Positions 2,871 to 56,874 of a DNA stretch of 64,000 nucleotides are shown here, one piece after another. The stretch spans positions 68,818 to 132,817 of the forward strand of contig CAVSHP010000024.1 of NCBI GenBank assembly GCA_963727635.1, written 5' to 3'. This DNA comes from an uncultured Gammaproteobacteria bacterium (GTDB lineage Bacteria; Pseudomonadota; Gammaproteobacteria; Xanthomonadales; SZUA-36). Position 1 is the first letter of the stretch. Each line of letters starts with the position of its first letter. Under the pieces are notes generated by a model. That model was given only the letters and a program-made list of their open reading frames with translations. It ran no database searches and was not told the DNA's origin. The translations under genes and the position numbers were made by a program.

Positions 2871-3506
2871 TCAGGTACTTGCCCTGACAGCGGCTATACA
2901 CTGCGCGGCGCGTTCCTCGATGGCGTCCCAGCGTCCTGCGGCGATGTCCGCGGGCACGAACAGGGGCGTCACAAATCCGGCGGCATACGCGCCAGCCGCG
3001 ATCCACGCCCCGGCGTTGTGCTGATCTACCCCATTGGTGGGCACGATCTTCAACCACGGCATCGGCCCGAGCACGGCGCGTACCCAGTCGGGACCACCAT
3101 TGGGGCTTGGGAAAAGCTTGCAAAGCTGGGCGCCGGCGCGGTGCGCGCGTAACATTTCCGTCGGCGTATGGGTGCCGGGCATGCAGGCCACACCGAGCTC
3201 GTTCGCTGCCTCAATGACCACTTCGTCGACGACGGGTGAAACGAGAAAACGGGCGCCGGCTTCCACAGACTGCCGGGCTTCATCAGCATTCATGACCGTA
3301 CCGGTGCCAACCACCAGGCCTTCGCGTCGGGAAAAATCCTGCACCAGATCAAAGACGCCCGGAATGGTCAGTGTGAATTCGATGATGCGGAATCCGCCAC
3401 GTATGGCAGCCTCCATCGCTTGCGCAGCTTTTTCCTGATCATTGGTGCGTAATATCGCGCTGGCTTTGTCGCGGCCGAATTGTTCGACGAAGACTTCTGG
3501 GGTCAC
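2871..3506 (-). CDS. eda: 2-dehydro-3-deoxyphosphogluconate (KDPG) / 4-hydroxy-2-oxoglutarate aldolase
   Basis: 211-aa ORF with the typical Eda sequence: EFTLTIPGV...VVGTGTVMN...FLVSPVVDEVV...PGTHTPTEM...KLFPS. Confidence 0.9.
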   Translation of the reverse strand: MTPEVFVEQFGRDKASAILRTNDQEKAAQAMEAAIRGGFRIIEFTLTIPGVFDLVQDFSRREGLVVGTGTVMNADEARQSVEAGARFLVSPVVDEVVIEAANELGVACMPGTHTPTEMLRAHRAGAQLCKLFPSPNGGPDWVRAVLGPMPWLKIVPTNGVDQHNAGAWIAAGAYAAGFVTPLFVPADIAAGRWDAIEERAAQCIAAVRAST

Positions 3507-3657
3507 GGAATCTGCTCCTGCTGATGGCTGCTCGAAGAACGGATGGTAACCGTAAAGGGCGGTTTTTTACAGCGAAGACAGGCGCAAAACCGCGAAGATT
3601 TTTCGGTTGTCTCCCGCTGCTGTCTTACCTAATCTGGTGAGGAGGGGAAGTTGGAAC

Positions 3658-3744
3658 GTGTGGTTTTTACCAGGACACGGCACAAGTACATCCCTGTAGC
3701 CTCGGACTCGGCTTCCTGCCTCGTACGGTCCTGGTAATAACCAC
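3658..3744. repeat. Palindromic repeat element, copy A (conserved core CTCGGACTCGGCTTCCTGCCTCGTACGGTCCTG flanked by 17-bp inverted arms); possible outer extension 3644..3767
   Basis: The same core recurs at 5041..5073 and, reverse-complemented, at 5177..5205. Arms GTGGTTTTTACCAGGAC / GTCCTGGTAATAACCAC are near-perfect inverted repeats. Confidence 0.7.
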
Positions 3745-3913
3745 CCACCCCAGCTTCAACTGACCCCCGTGCCAACCCGTTAGAAACCATTGACCCATGA
3801 TTTAACACGCAGATAAGGAGCCAATGTCCGATTGTGGTCACCATTTTTGACATGTCGCGTCCCGGCAACTCTCCGGTTTAGCGTTTCGCCTTTACTGTAG
3901 GGTTGGGACTACA

Positions 3914-4708
3914 TTAGTTTTGTCCATCCAGGAACAACAACGCCTCGGTCAGGTATGTTGCATCCGGAAGTCGGTGTGCCATGCCTGGCACGATGATGAG
4001 CCTTGTATGTTCGGCCCCGGCTTCGATGTAGCGCTTTTGTATGCGCCGGGTTTGCATGCGATTGAAGTCCCTCGTCCCTGACAGGAACACAAACCTGTTC
4101 TTGAGCACACGGTCGACATTTGGCGTGTTCTTTTCCTTCCAGAAATAAACCCCGCAGATGTAGAGCGCGCCTGAATATACTTCCGGATACTGGCTCGCCA
4201 GCAGGCTGGCCACCTTGCCGCCACCGGAAAAGCCGGATACGTAGATGCGCCCGGTATTAAAGACGTACTGTTGCGCCAGCGCCTGGACCGCGAGGTTTGC
4301 CATTACCATCCGGCGAATCGTCCGTATCTCGTTGCCCACATCGTTGGCGGAGATATAGATCAGGTTTTGCTGGTCCATGACTTCACGCCAGCGGGGGTCG
4401 ATTTCCCCCGTGTCCATCGGGCTGACGTAAACCAGCACGCCGGGTTTTTCTGTCGAGTCGGTTTTCGGCAGATAAACCTGCCAACTGATGGTCTTGTCAG
4501 GCGGTAGTATCTGCCTGTATTGGTCTGCCATCTGTTCACCGAGAAGAAGGTCGGGTGTTGTCTGTAATTTCAGGTCATGGGCGGTGGGCGGGGCTTCGGC
4601 GATTGCTTCTCCGGCCGGCATAAATACAAAGCACATACAGATGATTGCCCGGATAAATCCAGCCCGGCTTTGAATCCGCAATTCATCGGTAGTGCTTTTC
4701 AACATCAA
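3914..4708 (-). CDS. Secreted alpha/beta-hydrolase (esterase/depolymerase-like)
   Basis: 264-aa ORF with an N-terminal hydrophobic signal and GFSGGG nucleophile-elbow motif (GxSxG), plus a downstream His. Exact family not resolved. Confidence 0.6.
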   Translation of the reverse strand: MMLKSTTDELRIQSRAGFIRAIICMCFVFMPAGEAIAEAPPTAHDLKLQTTPDLLLGEQMADQYRQILPPDKTISWQVYLPKTDSTEKPGVLVYVSPMDTGEIDPRWREVMDQQNLIYISANDVGNEIRTIRRMVMANLAVQALAQQYVFNTGRIYVSGFSGGGKVASLLASQYPEVYSGALYICGVYFWKEKNTPNVDRVLKNRFVFLSGTRDFNRMQTRRIQKRYIEAGAEHTRLIIVPGMAHRLPDATYLTEALLFLDGQN

Positions 4709-4986
4709 GGATTTGTACCTCCGTTCTTTCCAATTCTATGCCAATTGAAACCACGGATACCTCTCGCTTCATCCAGTGAAGCCGGGTATTGATCGATTTA
4801 TGTATTCAATCCCAGTGCTGCCCACTTGATCGAAATTCCCCATGCTCAAGTAAAGTAAAGGCTCCAAACCAGTTTGCTTGGTGTGAACCACACTTGGACC
4901 TTGTTTCGATTTCAGCGTGGGCGCCAGGGCCATGTAGCATCTTACTTCAGGACTTTTTTGCCGGTTTCTATTGATCAGTGTGGAAG

Positions 4987-5096
4987 CCTAGGGGGTGTGG
5001 TGTCTTGTTTCAGGACACGCTCAAGCACATCCTGTGTCGCTCGGACTCGGCTTCCTGCCTCGTACGGTCCTGAAACAAGACACCACACCCCCTAGG
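4987..5096. repeat. Palindromic repeat element, copy B (perfect 30-bp inverted arms around the conserved core)
   Basis: CCTAGGGGGTGTGGTGTCTTGTTTCAGGAC (4987..5016) is the exact reverse complement of 5067..5096. The core is shared with copies A and C. Confidence 0.8.
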
Positions 5097-5153
5097 CTTT
5101 GTGCGAACGCATAGGTCAATGGTTTCTGACAGGTTTGCACGGCGTATGACGGA

Positions 5154-5260
5154 CTCTGGGGTGGGTAGTTGATTCCAGGACCGTACGAGGCAGGAAGCCG
5201 AGTATCGAGGCCCCAGGGAAGGCTTGCGCCGAGTCCTGGAACCAACTACCCACCCCAGAG
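5154..5260. repeat. Palindromic repeat element, copy C (inverted orientation; 28-bp arms, 1 mismatch)
   Basis: Arms CTCTGGGGTGGGTAGTTGATTCCAGGAC / GTCCTGGAACCAACTACCCACCCCAGAG. The core is reverse-complemented relative to A and B. Confidence 0.8.
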
Positions 5261-5449
5261 TCCCCCACCGGCAGACTAAGTGGGACAGCAGTGATTCGAA
5301 CCCGATCTGAAGGAACCCTGCAATTCCGTTTTGACGGGGTATGAGGCAGTTATCAATGCCACATAAAAAATCGTCATGAAAGGCATCAGCCAAAGAAAGG
5401 CGCCTGTGTACGCGCCTTTTCAATATCAAAACCGGGTAGGTCGGGAATC

Positions 5450-6160
5450 TCAGTTTTTACCCTTTATTTTGTCCCAAAGCCCCTTGGCCTTTTTTTCGAT
5501 CACCTTATTCAGGCCCTCCTTTGCCGCTGACTTGATGACGGCGGTAACCAGTTTGCCAGTGATTTCCTTTGCAACGACATCGGCGGTTACACCACCCTGT
5601 GTGCTGCCAATACCGGTAATTTTGACCGTCGGCAAATCGATTTCCATGACCTCGCCGGGTTTGAGTGCCGTACTGGCTTTGACATGTCCGCCACTGAACA
5701 CGAAACTTTCGATGACCATTTTTGTTTGTTCTCCCGGGGCGCCGGAAGCACTGTCAGATGGACCGCTGTCGATATTGTTCAACAGGGTCTGCATATTGCT
5801 CCCACCGTTCGCGTTTCCTTCAAGAACTACCTTGGGGTTTTCGACCTTGATGGACTCTATTACCAGCACATCCTGGCTCATTGAAGCCAGGTCAAGATCA
5901 ACCCCGATACCCGCCAACTCGAAAAGGTTTGCACGCGACCAGCCTTCCGGGTTTGCTACGGTCAGGCCGGCAATCACTGCCTTACCCGCTTTCAGGTCAA
6001 TCGAAACACCGGAAACACTGACCTTTGTTTTCAGTACATCCGAGCCGACATTTTCAATCGTGTCGGCGACGATGCCATCCAGGTTTGCGGCAACTCTCCA
6101 TACCAGGATGGCAAGCACCAGTACAACGATACCCAAAATGATCAATATGTTTTTTTTCAT
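5450..6160 (-). CDS. Hypothetical membrane-anchored periplasmic protein
   Basis: 236-aa ORF. An N-terminal TM helix (ILIILGIVVLVLAILVW) is followed by a Gly/Val/Ser-rich beta-type domain. No confident family call. Confidence 0.5.
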   Translation of the reverse strand: MKKNILIILGIVVLVLAILVWRVAANLDGIVADTIENVGSDVLKTKVSVSGVSIDLKAGKAVIAGLTVANPEGWSRANLFELAGIGVDLDLASMSQDVLVIESIKVENPKVVLEGNANGGSNMQTLLNNIDSGPSDSASGAPGEQTKMVIESFVFSGGHVKASTALKPGEVMEIDLPTVKITGIGSTQGGVTADVVAKEITGKLVTAVIKSAAKEGLNKVIEKKAKGLWDKIKGKN

Positions 6161-15489: not shown

Positions 15490-15525
15490 GCTGCCGGTTC
15501 CAACCAGTAGCCCTTTTTATTCATG
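15490..15525 (+). terminator. Rho-independent terminator-like hairpin on + strand (AAAGGGCT...AGCCCTTTTTATT), convergent with the csrA-like gene
   Basis: A GC stem (AGGGCT/AGCCCT) is followed by TTTTTATT. No + strand CDS ends here. Confidence 0.4.
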
Positions 15526-15754
15526 CGACGACGCGGCGTCGCGGGTCGACCAGCGTCCCTTCATGTTTCTTGACGCGTTGGCAAATCTCTCCCCTTTGTT
15601 TTTGAATACGTTGGAACAACGCTTCGCGGTGTATCTGCATGTCAGACAGTTCTGTGCTGTTAACCTGGTTTGTTATCACTTCTGTTACATGAACGGTGAC
15701 ATAATCCCCCAGGACAAGCGGTGTGTCTTTTGCTTCCGGTTTATTGATTATCAT
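15521..15754 (-). CDS. Divergent CsrA/RsmA-like RNA-binding protein (77 aa)
   Basis: Sub-ORF preceded by AGGAAG ribosome-binding site. MIINKPEAKDTPLVLGDYVTVHVTEVITNQVNSTELSDMQIHREALFQRIQKQ aligns with E. coli CsrA [55 protein letters not shown] (GD.VTV, NQV, HRE...QRIQ conserved). Confidence 0.5.
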   Translation of the reverse strand: MIINKPEAKDTPLVLGDYVTVHVTEVITNQVNSTELSDMQIHREALFQRIQKQRGEICQRVKKHEGTLVDPRRRVVA

Positions 15755-16926: not shown

Positions 16927-17120
16927 CAGTGCTGTCCCACTTAATCTGAATTTGCCATGCTCAAGTAAAAACCCCATTCAAATTTGCCGGATGTTGACCG
17001 CAATTTGACCTCGTTTTGATTTCAGCATGGGCGCCAAGGCCATGCAGTACCTTACTTCAGGACACCACAAGTCGCATATGTGGCCCCAGTGTCCCCACCA
17101 GATTAAGTGAGACAGCAGTG
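16927..17120. mobile_element. MITE (194 bp) bearing the TIRs of the IS4-family element at 36666..37940
   Basis: Ends CAGTGCTGTCCCACTTAA (16927..16944) and TTAAGTGAGACAGCAGTG (17103..17120), compared with the IS TIR CACTGCTGTCCCACTTAA. No coding capacity. The interior is related to 4814..4960. Confidence 0.75.
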
Positions 17121-17133
17121 TATCCGGCTCCTT

Positions 17134-18195
17134 TTATTCCTTCGCTTTAATGTGACTTATCATTGCCAACGGCTCGCCTTCACTCACCGGTGGTGTGCCG
17201 ACAACATAGTTCACTATCCCCGCGAAGGGTGCGCGCACTTCTGCGACCCTGTTGCCAAAGGCGTCGACGAGTTGACCCAGTAAGCCGTTTTCAGCAACCG
17301 CGTAACCATCGCGGACCGAAGCCTGGAATATGCCGGTAGCGGGACTCTTGATCACCTCGTAGCCGGTCAGCCAGACCACGCCTTCATTCTCTTCGGGTAT
17401 GCCCTTGATCATGCCAAGATGACGCATCAGGTTGGTAATGCCACGTTCCGCCAATCCGACCCAATACTGATCATTGGAGCCGAGTTGGCCGGTTTCGGTG
17501 GTGATTGCCGGAATTCCACGCGCCAGCGCTGTCTGGTCGGTGTACAGGGAAGCATCTTTTGGCAACAGCGGACCCTCGTCAATTACGATATGGTCCAGCC
17601 CGAACGCCAGCGCCATGCCGCGACAGGCGGCATCCAGTTCCGGATTGCCGATAACCGGCATGTAGACATAGGGACGCAGGGCCTCGTTGCCGTCGCCGGC
17701 GTGCAGATCAACAAGAAAATCTGCACGTTCGATCACTTGCCGCGTGATGCTGTCTGCGATGCGTTCGCTTAAAGTCCCATCCTTCTTGCCGGGAAATACG
17801 CGGTTGAGATTCTTGCCATCGACAGGGCTGGTATAGATCGTGCGTGCGTAAAACGAAGGTGGGTTGGCGATATGCACCAGAATCAGCGTACCAGAGAGAT
17901 CCTGAGTGCGAACCGATTTGCGCAGTCGTTGCAGTGCGGTGATGCCCGGGTATTCGTATCCATGGACACCGGCGATGAGGGCCAGTACCGGACCCGGGTT
18001 CTGGCCGCGGATAACCGACACCGGGATTCGCGTACCCGCGTCATTCAGGGGTTCAATATCAAGATAGCCCGAAACGGACTTCCCGGGGCCGGCCTTGATT
18101 GTACCCACGGTGAATACGTCCTGCCCGGCTGCCTCTACAGGTGTATTCAGAAAAACAACGATCAATATCAGTGGCAATACATATTGGCAAAACAT
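17134..18195 (-). CDS. Succinylglutamate desuccinylase/aspartoacylase-family (M14-like) zinc hydrolase, secreted
   Basis: Signal peptide, then LIAGVHGYEYPG (His-x-x-Glu zinc ligands) and DLHAGD motif typical of the AstE/AspA family. Confidence 0.65.
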   Translation of the reverse strand: MFCQYVLPLILIVVFLNTPVEAAGQDVFTVGTIKAGPGKSVSGYLDIEPLNDAGTRIPVSVIRGQNPGPVLALIAGVHGYEYPGITALQRLRKSVRTQDLSGTLILVHIANPPSFYARTIYTSPVDGKNLNRVFPGKKDGTLSERIADSITRQVIERADFLVDLHAGDGNEALRPYVYMPVIGNPELDAACRGMALAFGLDHIVIDEGPLLPKDASLYTDQTALARGIPAITTETGQLGSNDQYWVGLAERGITNLMRHLGMIKGIPEENEGVVWLTGYEVIKSPATGIFQASVRDGYAVAENGLLGQLVDAFGNRVAEVRAPFAGIVNYVVGTPPVSEGEPLAMISHIKAKE

Positions 18196-34698: not shown

Positions 34699-34983
34699 CT
34701 ATAGCTGTGACTTGAAGTAGTTGAAGGAATGTTTGAAGGCATCGCGCACATTTTCCATCTCGGCGACCATGCTGTCCCACTTGTCTTCTCCTACCAACTG
34801 GATTTCCTCGAATTTTTTGACGGCAAGTTTGGACTGCTTGCTCAGCTTGCTCATCTCTTCCTTGTACCTGGCACGCGCATCGATCTTCGCATCCTTCGCC
34901 TTGGACTCAAGTTCACTCATCTTTGCATTCAGTTCGTCGAGTTGCTTCTTCATCTTTTCGATATATACGACTCTTTTTGACAT
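34699..34983 (-). CDS. Hypothetical coiled-coil protein (94 aa)
   Basis: Internal start MSKRVVYIEKMKKQLDELNAKMSELESKAK... with a Lys/Glu-rich heptad pattern. Upstream track ORF residues look non-coding. Confidence 0.4.
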   Translation of the reverse strand: MSKRVVYIEKMKKQLDELNAKMSELESKAKDAKIDARARYKEEMSKLSKQSKLAVKKFEEIQLVGEDKWDSMVAEMENVRDAFKHSFNYFKSQL

Positions 34984-35051: not shown

Positions 35052-35333
35052 TCATTGAATATGTATGGCAAGAATACACATGACATCGCTCAAGGGCTGT
35101 TCGTTGCCACACATAATCGGATGGACCGTTTCGTCGATGCTGCCGTGACACTTTTCTTTCGCCTCACGCTCGCAGAAGTGTCGCTCATCACTCCAGCGGG
35201 TTTCCGGATTCCGCGGGGTGCTGGTCACTCGCTCGGCTCCGTTGATCCCGCAACCGCCGCACAGCATCGACAGGCAAAACCACTGTGCTTTCAGCGCCAG
35301 CATAGCCAAGGGAGCGCAGTGGTTGCAGATCAA
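35052..35333 (-). CDS. Hypothetical Cys-rich small protein (9 Cys in 93 aa); could be spurious
   Basis: MICNHCAPLAM...CGGCG...CEREAKEKCHGS...MCGNE. Its start region coincides with a TIR-like sequence (35327..35346). Confidence 0.3.
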   Translation of the reverse strand: MICNHCAPLAMLALKAQWFCLSMLCGGCGINGAERVTSTPRNPETRWSDERHFCEREAKEKCHGSIDETVHPIMCGNEQPLSDVMCILAIHIQ

Positions 35334-35347
35334 GCGGGACAGCAGTG

Positions 35348-36102: not shown

Positions 36103-36687
36103 ATGCAGACGCAGAAAAATTACCCTATGTCGAATGACGGGTTGGGGGCGCGTTTTGCGCTCGGAACGATTGCGCTGCTCGCGGCCATATTCATACTGAT
36201 CGCCTGGGACATGTTGCAGGACTATGCGGAGGGAACCGGTGGGTTTCATGTGCTGATCGAATCCACGGTGCTGATACTGGCACTCGGCGGTATCGGTTTG
36301 CTTTTGTCGCGGGTTTACCGGGAGCAGGCTTCCGCCAGAGAATTGCGGCGCGATCTGAGCGTGGTCAAGCAGGAGTCAAATCGTTGGCGCGAGGATAGTC
36401 GTATCCTGATTGAAGGACTGGGTTCAGCCGTTCAAAAGCAGTTTGTCCGCTGGGAACTGTCAGCAGCAGAATCTGAAATTGCGCTGTTATTACTAAAAGG
36501 TTTCAGTTTGAATGATGTCGCGGGGATGCGCGGGACAAGTGAAAGAACCGTGCGTGAGCAGGCACGAAACGTGTATCGCAAGGCGGGAATTTCAGGGCGA
36601 TCAGGTTTATCCGCATTTTTCCTGGAAGATCTGCTGCTGCCCCCGCAGGAAAAGGGGTCGGAGACACTGCTGTCCCACTTAAGTTGA
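36103..36687 (+). CDS. LuxR/GerE-family transcriptional regulator with N-terminal membrane domain; last 7 codons and stop supplied by the IS left TIR
   Basis: C-terminal helix-turn-helix LSAAESEIALLLLKGFSLNDVAGMRGTSERTVREQARNVYRKAGISGRSGLSAFFLEDLL. The ORF ends ...SETLLSHLS* inside GACACTGCTGTCCCACTTAAGTTGA. Confidence 0.7.
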   Translation: MQTQKNYPMSNDGLGARFALGTIALLAAIFILIAWDMLQDYAEGTGGFHVLIESTVLILALGGIGLLLSRVYREQASARELRRDLSVVKQESNRWREDSRILIEGLGSAVQKQFVRWELSAAESEIALLLLKGFSLNDVAGMRGTSERTVREQARNVYRKAGISGRSGLSAFFLEDLLLPPQEKGSETLLSHLS

Positions 36688-37940
36688 ATGAAAAAGGCCT
36701 GAAACTCGTTGTTTTTGTTACAATGTGTTTACCGCTAAACCATTGAAAACAAGAGGAGAATCAGGCCATGTCTTACAATAATAGCGTACTTTCCCAATTA
36801 CTGAAATTACTACCGAGACATGAATTTGAAAGACTGGCAAATCGTCATGACGGCAAGCGTCGCAGCGATGCCCTGTCACGCTGGTCGCAGTTTGTAGCAC
36901 TGACCATTGGCCAGCTGGGTGGCCGCCGATCGCTGCGCGACATCGAGTCAACGATCCACTCTCAAGGACGACATCGTTACCACCTGGGTAGCCAGAGCGA
37001 TCAGTCGTTCAGGCTTAAGCCGGGCCAACGAGCAGTTGGATTATCGGTTCTTTGAAGGCTTGTTCCAAAGCCTGTATCAGCGTTGTACACACAACCAGCG
37101 CAGCCATGGGTTCCGCTTCAAGAACAAGTTGTTCTCGTTGGATGCTTCACTGATCGATGTGTCGATGAAAGTGTTTCCATGGGCCAACTTTAATCGCAAG
37201 AAGTCAGCTTTCAAATTACACGTGGGCCTGGATCATGATGGACTGATACCGGCCTTTGCCAGTGTCACCCGGAGCAAGGTGTCGGATATGGCGCAAGCCC
37301 GGTTGCTGGCGCTACCACGCGGTAGCGTGGTGGTTTTCGATAAAGGTTATAACAGCTATGGCTGGCATAACAGTCTGACTGAAAAGGGTATTTTCTTTGT
37401 CACCCGTATTCGTGGTAACGCTCAATACCGTGTGCTCAAACGGCAACCGGTGAGCCAAGGCAGCGGTGTCAGCAGTGATCAGACCATCGAATATACCTCG
37501 CTGCGCAAGGACATCCAGGCGCTCAAGCCGATTCGTCGGGTCGGTTATCGCGACCAGCTAACTGGCAAGCACTATGTATTTATTACTAACCAGTTCAACT
37601 GGTCAGCCAGGACCATTGCCGATATCTACAAGCAGCGCTGGCAGGTTGAGCTGTTCTTCAAATGGATCAAACAGAACCTCAAAATCAAGGCATTCCTGGG
37701 CACCAGTGAGAATGCAGTGATGACGCAAATAATGGCTGCCTTGTGTGTGTACTTGTTGCTGGCCTACCTGAAATTCCAATCGAAGATCAGCAAATCGCTA
37801 CAGCAAATAATACGCCTGCTGCAACTGAATCTGTTTGCCAGGCGGTCCCTGCTTGAACTCTTAGAACCGCCTGATCAGGGTGGGCTACCACCGCCACAGT
37901 TAACATTCAGCATGGTGCGAAATTAAGTGGGACAGCAGTG
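36666..37940 (+). mobile_element. IS4-family insertion sequence (1275 bp) with perfect 18-bp terminal inverted repeats
   Basis: CACTGCTGTCCCACTTAA (36666..36683) and TTAAGTGGGACAGCAGTG (37923..37940). Encodes a DDE transposase. Confidence 0.8.
36768..37926 (+). pseudogene. IS4-family DDE transposase, split by a frameshift near 36950..37000 (N-terminal DUF4372-like segment 36768..37055; DDE core 36907..37926)
   Basis: N-part MSYNNSVLSQLLKLLPRHEFERLANRHDGKRRSDALSRWSQFVALTIGQL. C-part contains DKGY...YKQRWQVELFFKWIKQNLKIK, typical of IS4/IS5-superfamily transposases. Confidence 0.7.
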
Positions 37941-56520: not shown

Positions 56521-56874
56521 CTTTAAATTCTAGCAATCTTGTATGAATTTTGGTGGTTTCGTTTGAGTCCGCACGCTCAACAGGCCGGGTGGTATTCACT
56601 GCCCAGGCTTATCCGGGCCTGCGGGCTTCCCTCAGCCAGGATTTCGCCTGATCGGGATCGCGCTGGCGGTACATCCCTGTACCGTCAGCACTCGATTTTC
56701 ATCCTGAAAATCACCCCGGGCGAAATCCCTGTCTTCGGCGGATAAATGGGCAGTGAATACCACCCGGCCTGCTGAGCTCTTCAGCTGAAAGGTGTGCACC
56801 TTCGTAAGTTCAGCTATTTCCCGATGTTGCCTGGCCCAGGTGTATACAACGTTGCTGGAATTGACATCTTGCCC

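Follow-up and report, generated by a model that had tools for sequence, protein, structure and literature searches.

We analysed 64,000 nucleotides (nt) of contig CAVSHP010000024.1 (assembly GCA_963727635.1, positions 68,818 to 132,817 of the forward strand; hereafter, the window) from an uncultured gammaproteobacterium of the Xanthomonadales lineage SZUA-36. Near the left end of the window, among ordinary genes for a KDPG aldolase, an alpha/beta hydrolase and a DUF748 protein, all three coded on the minus strand, lie two copies of a MITE (miniature inverted-repeat transposable element), one complete and one decayed, which between them carry three long hairpins of about 110 nt. Further along are a shortened derivative of the MITE and an insertion sequence (IS) of the IS4 family with the same terminal inverted repeats (TIRs) (Table 1). 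The hairpins are internal modules of a ~480-bp non-autonomous IS4-type MITE and probably RNA hairpins that display binding sites of the CsrA/Rsm type.

The three hairpins (copies 1 to 3) lie about where a preliminary description of this DNA, made from the letters alone, had located the copies of a repeat, and each has a loop of 50-51 nt. The 33-nt core CTCGGACTCGGCTTCCTGCCTCGTACGGTCCTG attributed to all of them is exact in copies 1 and 2 and not in copy 3; the invariant core common to the three is the 28-mer ACTCGGCTTCCTGCCTCGTACGGTCCTG. The 19-mer GGCTTCCTGCCTCGTACGG occurs three times in the window and in none of 100 shuffles. The arms had been described as copy-specific yet self-complementary inside each copy, which the complementarities in Table 1 bear out; they are also related from copy to copy and fall into two types, A and B. 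The copies form much more stable folds than shuffles do, with z-scores of -4.6 to -12. Each hairpin was oriented by its purine-rich loop, independently of the arms, and the strand so defined is referred to as the GA strand. There is no further close copy of the hairpin within the 64-kb window.

The preliminary description regarded these repeats as a free-standing family of ~110 bp, to be given up should copies be found only nested in a nearby MITE. As far as the window goes, all three copies are nested inside MITE copies, and the free-standing family does not hold up. Just outside hairpin A, copies 1 and 3 have the TIR CACTGCTGTCCCACTTA(A/G)TCTG. The sequence CACTGCTGTCCCACTTA occurs 6 times in the window, compared with ~0 expected, and as an inverted pair bounds three elements, namely the full MITE, its 194-bp derivative and the IS (Table 1). 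On the minus strand of the window, the full MITE consists of TIR-L, hairpin A, a spacer (T), hairpin B, an orphan arm, a tail and TIR-R, and is flanked by a 9-bp target-site duplication (TSD), ATTCAATCC (4804-4812) and ATTCGAACC (5294-5302). The MITE thus has IS4-type TIRs and 9-bp TSDs separate from the hairpins, and the earlier argument that the hairpin arms are not transposase-recognised TIRs was correct. The orphan arm recurs in the 194-bp derivative, which suggests that it is a remnant and that the ancestral element had a further or rearranged hairpin. In the decayed MITE, hairpin B is cleanly deleted, and the right end, now degenerate, lies directly against the stop codon of the hydrolase open reading frame (ORF). 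The 194-bp derivative retains both TIRs, the start of an A arm, a piece of the loop, the right arm of B and the tail; it is inserted in a palindrome that resembles a terminator (AATAAAGG...CCTTTTATT), immediately downstream of ORF 17134-18195. All these MITE elements are small (194-481 bp), with only spurious ORFs inside, and the TSDs of some elements have 1-2 mismatches.

The IS has the TIRs of the MITE without the hairpins, and is, judging from its ends, a candidate source of transposase acting in trans on the MITE. Its ORF matched the Pfam domain DDE_Tnp_1 at 2e-32 and the NCBIfam IS4 family at 236 bits. The transposase frame is interrupted, with an N-terminal part from an ATG at ~36768 in another frame than ORF 36907-37926; the split transposase is a frameshift or a pseudogene. 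Because TIRs and TSDs are shared with the IS, an IS4-type transposase probably moved the MITE. The core of the MITE spacer, AAACCATTGA, recurs in the 5' leader of the IS. At 35326-35347, a right-end TIR of this IS/MITE family (TCAAGCGGGACAGCAGTG) is left on its own as a remnant, without a partner; a TIR-like match at 34769, considered as that partner, is a chance match inside a coding region.

Table 1. Mobile elements of the window and their parts (TIR-L and TIR-R, left and right terminal inverted repeats; TSD, target-site duplication)
Feature	Position	Strand	Remarks
Hairpin copy 1 = hairpin A of decayed MITE	3647-3757	core +, GA strand -	30-nt arms, 80% complementary
Hairpin copy 2 = hairpin B of full MITE	4984-5099	core +, GA strand -	33-nt arms, 100% complementary
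Hairpin copy 3 = hairpin A of full MITE	5151-5263	core -, GA strand +	31-nt arms, 97% complementary
Full MITE, 481 bp	4813-5293	-	TIRs match the IS at 36665-37940
TIR-L of full MITE	5272-5293	-	CACTGCTGTCCCACTTAGTCTG, read on minus strand
TIR-R of full MITE	4813-4832	+	CAGTGCTGCCCACTTGATCG
Spacer T of full MITE	5100-5150	-	Core CAGAAACCATTGACC; conserved in metagenome units
Orphan B-type arm	4919-4953	+	GGGCGCCAGGGCCATGTAGCATCTTACTTCAGGAC; without partner arm; homologous to 17032-17066 of the short MITE
Second MITE copy, decayed	3615-~3917	+	TIR-L (3615-3636), hairpin A, spacer T, tail, degenerate right end
Spacer T of decayed MITE	3767-3808	+	81% complementary to 5101-5142
Internally deleted MITE derivative, 194 bp	16927-17120	-	9-bp TSD TGTCTGGCT/TATCCGGCT
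IS4-family insertion sequence, 1276 bp	36665-37940	+	TIR CACTGCTGTCCCACTTAA, same as MITE; 9-bp TSD GGTCGGAGA/GGTCGGATA

The family is widespread: when metagenomes were scanned with the exact 19-mer, at least 120 stretches matched (metagenome figures here and below are among the matches listed). One of them, L024, is a chance match. Many of the matches are at the ends of contigs, where a multi-copy repeat is expected to be found. The canonical metagenome unit comprises hairpin A, a conserved spacer T of ~65 nt (..GTAGTGCATCTATCAGAAACCATTGACCTATG..GCAC) and hairpin B with the loop inverted. Positions 4984-5263 of the window form such an A-T-B unit, and copy 1 belongs to an A-T unit from which B is deleted. 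In many metagenome units, the same TIR lies outside the hairpins, 0-60 nt from A and 70-110 nt from B, and in a compact subfamily related TIR-like ends directly abut both hairpins. Two of the metagenome MITE copies (L064 and L110) have TSDs of the 9-bp class, and a third (L016) has a TSD of ~7 nt with one mismatch. No recurrent protein family was found beside the copies in the metagenome loci, where the gene contexts are varied and of the housekeeping type. The core was found neither in the plasmid collection and viral contigs scanned nor in five metagenome-assembled genome loci of Lysobacterales/Gammaproteobacteria retrieved via the neighbouring hydrolase gene. In three related contigs (L063:3470-3960, L090:1750-2365 and L068:1920-2385), the MITE lies between the same two genes; the arms differ among these copies, and one copy has gained a loop insert.

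The clean absence of hairpin B from copy 1, and the ability of the loops to accept inserted modules, could indicate that the hairpins are independent mobile palindromes which have inserted in the MITE, whether REP/REPIN palindromes with a RAYT, IS200/IS605-type PATEs or attC sites. However, A, spacer and B always occur together, in fixed order and orientation, and missing hairpins leave stem bases behind in a deletion-like manner (L112, L096). In these two loci and in copy 1, the absence of a hairpin has the look of a deleted palindrome, not of an empty insertion site. Furthermore, genes for Y1/RAYT, TnpB or an integrase do not recur in the neighbourhood of the copies, conservation lies in the loop and variation in the stem, which is the opposite of REP and attC, and neither an array nor a GTTRRRY core site was found. 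We consider independent mobility of the hairpins hardly credible.

A second palindromic repeat family, bounded by TTATGTTCAGGATGAACGGTA / TACCGTTCATCCTGAACATAA, was observed in the metagenome loci (L091, L096, L057, L065 and L092, and the hairpin loops of L014, L015, L016, L025, L036 and L118). It occurs free, in tandem (L091) and inserted in hairpin loops, is rich in GGA-loop hairpins and has the 13-mer GTTCAGGATGAAC in common with Escherichia coli CsrB.

To describe the common fold, 160 distinct hairpins were gathered with an inverted-repeat finder around the metagenome matches, and the 131 with standard-length loops were aligned (alignment A3). RNAalifold returned a 23-bp outer helix leading to a three-way junction with two small stem-loops; individual stems are 23-33 bp long and closed by CAGGAC/GUCCUG. 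Double-sided changes were found in 28 of the 33 pairs, the copies being related and the counts those of sequences, not of independent events. Standard pairs filled 97.8% of the cells, compared with 76.9% in shuffles (0 of 500 reached the observed value), a percentage that is inflated for the outer helix because this helix was the criterion for collecting the hairpins; with partners slid, standard pairing fell to 33-41%. The covariation score was 0.556, versus 0.165 when shuffled and ~0.07-0.10 with slid partners. The four small helices, which lie outside the selection criterion, are 97-99% paired and contain compensatory changes. One series of these changes runs between GGC/GCC, GAC/GUC and GCGACA/UGUCGC, and another between CAC/GUG, UAC/GUA, CCC/GGG and CAG/CUG.

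The mismatches in the arms revealed a pronounced strand asymmetry. Read on the GA strand, non-Watson-Crick positions are G:T or T:G in 198 cases (83 in A-type and 115 in B-type arms) and A:C or C:A in only 11 (9 and 2, respectively). All other mismatches join two purines (G:A, A:G, G:G and A:A), except for three that join two pyrimidines. Because of this 18-to-1 excess of G:T over A:C, it is one strand, the GA strand, that must fold. The bias is the same for A and B despite their mutual inversion, so that the functional strand of each hairpin runs 5' to 3' toward the nearer end of the MITE. In the full MITE, the GA strand of copy 3 accordingly reads outward to TIR-L and that of copy 2 outward to TIR-R. 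The covariance model likewise scored copy 3 at 95.5 bits on the plus strand versus 38.2 on the minus strand, and copy 2 at 110.8 bits on the minus strand versus 42.2 on the plus strand; copy 1 scored 85.8 bits on the minus strand. The neighbouring genes are coded on the minus strand, and copies 1 and 2 would therefore appear in their transcripts in the functional sense. Together with the stem covariation, this strand-specific spectrum agrees with the structured RNA that the preliminary description had put forward. It points to selection on one folded strand, the GA strand, as the force that keeps the stems paired, and the most economical reading of the sequences is that this strand works as RNA.

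The same spectrum bears on the possibility that the palindromes are neutral, with arms complementary through recent copying, gene conversion or intrastrand templated repair. The copies are many and related, and long palindromes are often cleanly deleted, as in copy 1, L112 and L096. Moreover, the L063 and L090 copies, which occupy the same site, are distinguished by a 2-nt indel that recurs symmetrically in the two arms. Such a difference looks like copy replacement, and the indel suggests replacement or gene conversion as readily as it suggests selection. However, a neutral or templated process should leave the arms perfect or A:C as frequent as G:T, and is disfavoured by the counts given above; in addition, the small internal helices covary while the GGA loops remain constant. 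The preliminary description had also allowed for hairpin-templated synthesis, which predicts perfect arms and does not fit the many G:T, G:A and G:G positions on one strand. Overall, we judge neutrality very unlikely.

The loops themselves are built around paired GGA motifs. Of 130 standard loops, 116 contain two GGA on the GA strand, no more and no fewer, spaced by 22-26 nt and fixed in position, although retrieval by the exact 19-mer overstates the conservation of A-type loops, and the adjoining B hairpins show the true loop diversity. Each of the two small hairpins has one of the motifs in its apical loop and a stem that covaries around a constant GGA; A or AN precedes GGA in 327 of 331 cases. 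The pattern ACA.?GGA occurs 166 times on the GA strand versus twice on the opposite strand. Typical apical hairpins are GGC-AGGAA-GCC, GAC-AGGA-GUC, CACA-UGGA-UGUG, UACA-GGGA-UGUA and CCCC-AGGGA-GGGG, and atop the perfect 33-bp stem of copy 2 the junction presents GGC-AGGAA-GCC and CAC-AGGAU-GUG. Enlarged loops have gained modules of the same kind (GUUCA-GGA-UGAAC, GCGCA-GGGA-UGCGC, CUGCA-GGGA-UGCAG and GCACA-UGGA-UGUGC). A kink-turn was considered for the second small hairpin, with its C stem, CUU bulge and tandem GA, and was rejected, the key A of the non-bulged strand often being C (GCGCCACA, alignment A3).

This arrangement closely resembles the targets of the translational regulator CsrA. 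The dimer of CsrA bridges a pair of sites separated by some 10-60 nt, so that the 22-26-nt spacing of the GGA motifs fits one CsrA-type dimer per hairpin. The density of CA.?GGA.?G in the hairpin loops, 3.25 per 100 nt, equals that in E. coli CsrB and is ~35 times that in the window (0.094). In the E. coli csrB gene, used as a positive control, hairpins such as GGUCAGGAAGGCC and CACCAGGAUGGUG are present together with the 13-mer GTTCAGGATGAAC; this 13-mer is contained in one of the loop-insert modules, too. The consensus selected by CsrA in systematic evolution of ligands by exponential enrichment (SELEX) reads RUACARGGAUGU; within it ACA and GGA do not vary, and GGA is favoured in a hairpin loop (PMC4347634). 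As judged by motif, spacing and loop context, the paired A(N)GGA loops are a CsrA/RsmA recognition signature, and we propose CsrA/Rsm as the candidate reader of the hairpins.

A more distant long hairpin was observed at 56575-56777, with 31-bp arms that are 97% complementary, a 141-nt loop and very high stability (folding energy -138 kcal/mol, z = -13.6). The arms are similar to those of type A, and the match to the covariance model is weak (15 bits, E = 0.31). On the minus strand its apex reads GAUUUUC-AGGAU-GAAAAUC and GGUAC-AGGGAU-GUACC, the latter being a perfect match to RUACARGGAUGU. This hairpin may belong, as a remote relative, to the design described above.

Several observations weigh against an RNA that is read by CsrA, in addition to the way in which the hairpins were collected, the relatedness of the copies and the symmetric indel described above. 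No match to Rfam, including its Csr/Rsm models, was obtained; only tRNAs passed the gathering threshold, and hits at E<=10 were chance resemblances to miRNA hairpins. In a scan of positions 3400-5500, neither a promoter of the sigma-70 type nor an intrinsic terminator was detected within the elements or beside them, and no T-run follows the hairpins, which do not have the make-up of a stand-alone Csr/Rsm small RNA (sRNA) gene. The 64-kb window contains no canonical csrA. Finally, G:T and G:A pairs are tolerated in DNA hairpins as well, and the asymmetry is also compatible with a role of single-stranded DNA.

Two further candidates in the spacer were set aside. Weak -10-like hexamers (TATGAT/TATGCT), present in some copies, could have formed divergent promoters, and none passes the scan in the window. 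A putative IHF site (TATCAG..TTG) has a spacing that misfits the consensus WATCAANNNNTTR. A small ORF at 15521-15751 on the minus strand (MIINKPEAKDTPLVLGDYVTVHVTEVITNQV..IHREALFQRIQ) shows weak similarity to CsrA, with 39% identity over 46 aa in tblastn (E = 2.5e-4) and a Pfam CsrA score of 17 bits against a cut-off of 27. It may encode a divergent CsrA-like protein or reflect chance, and was not used as evidence.

The last of the objections raised above leads to the alternative that the hairpins function at the DNA level, folding as cruciforms or as single-stranded DNA with the 3' end at the nearer terminus, in transposition, replication or repair. A and B mirror each other across the MITE centre, the hairpins of the compact metagenome subfamily directly abut both TIRs in the manner of sub-terminal transposon features, G:T and tandem G:A pairs are stable in DNA, and the promoter scan was negative. 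However, the IS of the window, for all its shared TIRs, contains no such hairpins, MITE derivatives without one or both hairpins still inserted with TSDs, and the conserved A(N)GGA loops match the motif of an RNA-binding protein. Furthermore, IS4-family DDE transposases act on double-stranded ends, and sub-terminal single-stranded DNA hairpins are not known to play a part in their action. A function of the folded DNA appears rather unlikely to us.

An RNA of another kind could be imagined by analogy with IS10, in which MITE copies would produce an outward antisense RNA of the RNA-OUT type that represses the transposase of the parent IS (multicopy inhibition). The element belongs, as IS10 does, to the IS4 family, the GA sense of both hairpins points outward to the nearer end like that of RNA-OUT, and the spacer core recurs in the 5' leader of the IS. 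However, comparison of the hairpins with the IS by blastn-short returned only chance matches of 7-10 nt, the scan found no promoter, and the IS lacks a hairpin. Such a regulatory circuit is most improbable.

The reading that we favour, and hold to be probable on the strength of fold, strand and loop motif, is that of RNA hairpins borne by a MITE and displaying CsrA/Rsm-type sites. An IS4-type transposase would move the MITE in trans, the complete element consisting of TIR, hairpin A, a spacer of ~50-65 nt, hairpin B in inverted orientation, tail and TIR. Because A and B are inverted, a transcript across the complete MITE in either direction would carry one module in the functional sense. Transcription in the GA sense would make of each hairpin a rigid stalk with a two-site platform for a single CsrA-type dimer, and the element would in this way seed intergenic transcripts with binding or decoy sites of the Csr type. 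The local outcome could be to place Csr control or RNA stabilisation on the neighbouring gene, and the collective outcome could be titration of CsrA. More tentatively, and with less confidence than we place in the hairpins themselves, a MITE with two mirror-image hairpins might disperse Csr-responsive elements or decoys, its copies acting as a distributed CsrA sponge that rewires the Csr regulon in sediment Gammaproteobacteria.

If CsrA does bind, a mobile element is spreading the sites of a global translational regulator, a bacterial counterpart of transposon-borne regulatory sites in eukaryotes, and the family is a natural library for the rules of CsrA recognition. It offers hundreds of natural variants with strong covariation, in which the 18-to-1 asymmetry names the strand and the A(N)GGA pair names the candidate reader. 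Should CsrA binding prove false, the family would still be a good test set for distinguishing RNA-level from DNA-level constraint on palindromic repeats.

Among known systems, the closest likeness is to RNA-structured MITEs, such as bcr1 and its kin Correia/NEMIS of Neisseria, ERIC, RUP and BOX, for which the reader of the conserved RNA structure is rarely clear. In the Bacillus cereus group, bcr1 is a transcribed MITE-like repeat with an RNA fold kept by compensatory changes (PMC3184786), and this much is already known. The elements share their small size, non-autonomous and intergenic nature, target duplications and a folded structure with compensatory changes. Here, however, the structure comes from two inverted internal hairpins of ~110 nt rather than from the TIRs, each hairpin is topped by an apical pair of GGA-loop hairpins, and the parent is an IS4-family IS; elements of the bcr1 type are transcribed with their neighbours.

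The sponges CsrB, CsrC and RsmX/Y/Z resemble the present hairpins in their repeated A(N)GGA stem-loops, some of which are nearly identical (GUUCAGGAUGAAC and GGNCAGGAAGCC-like), whereas the present family is dispersed by a transposon in many copies, has, in the stretch scanned, no promoter or terminator of its own and no Rfam match, and presents only two predicted sites per long stalk. With IS10 RNA-OUT it has in common an IS4-family element and a stable stem-loop with the functional sense outward near the element end, and differs in having no complementarity to the transposase leader of the IS, no detectable pOUT-like promoter and a hairpin-less IS. REPINs are likewise ~100-nt intergenic multi-copy hairpins with arms that change together; their arms are conserved and recognised and their loop is free, whereas here the loop is conserved and the arms drift, inside a DDE-type MITE. 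No RAYT recurs beside the copies, in a search confined to their neighbours, the genome elsewhere not having been searched for RAYT. Integron attC sites differ in turn, as no R''/R' (RYYYAAC/GTTRRRY) is present at the hairpin bases and the hairpins are inverted pairs in a TIR-bounded element. A full-text literature search returned no paper linking MITEs and CsrA. Thus, compared with these systems, what is new in the present family is the pair of inverted internal hairpins distinct from the TIRs, the clean evidence for a functional strand and the paired A(N)GGA loops.

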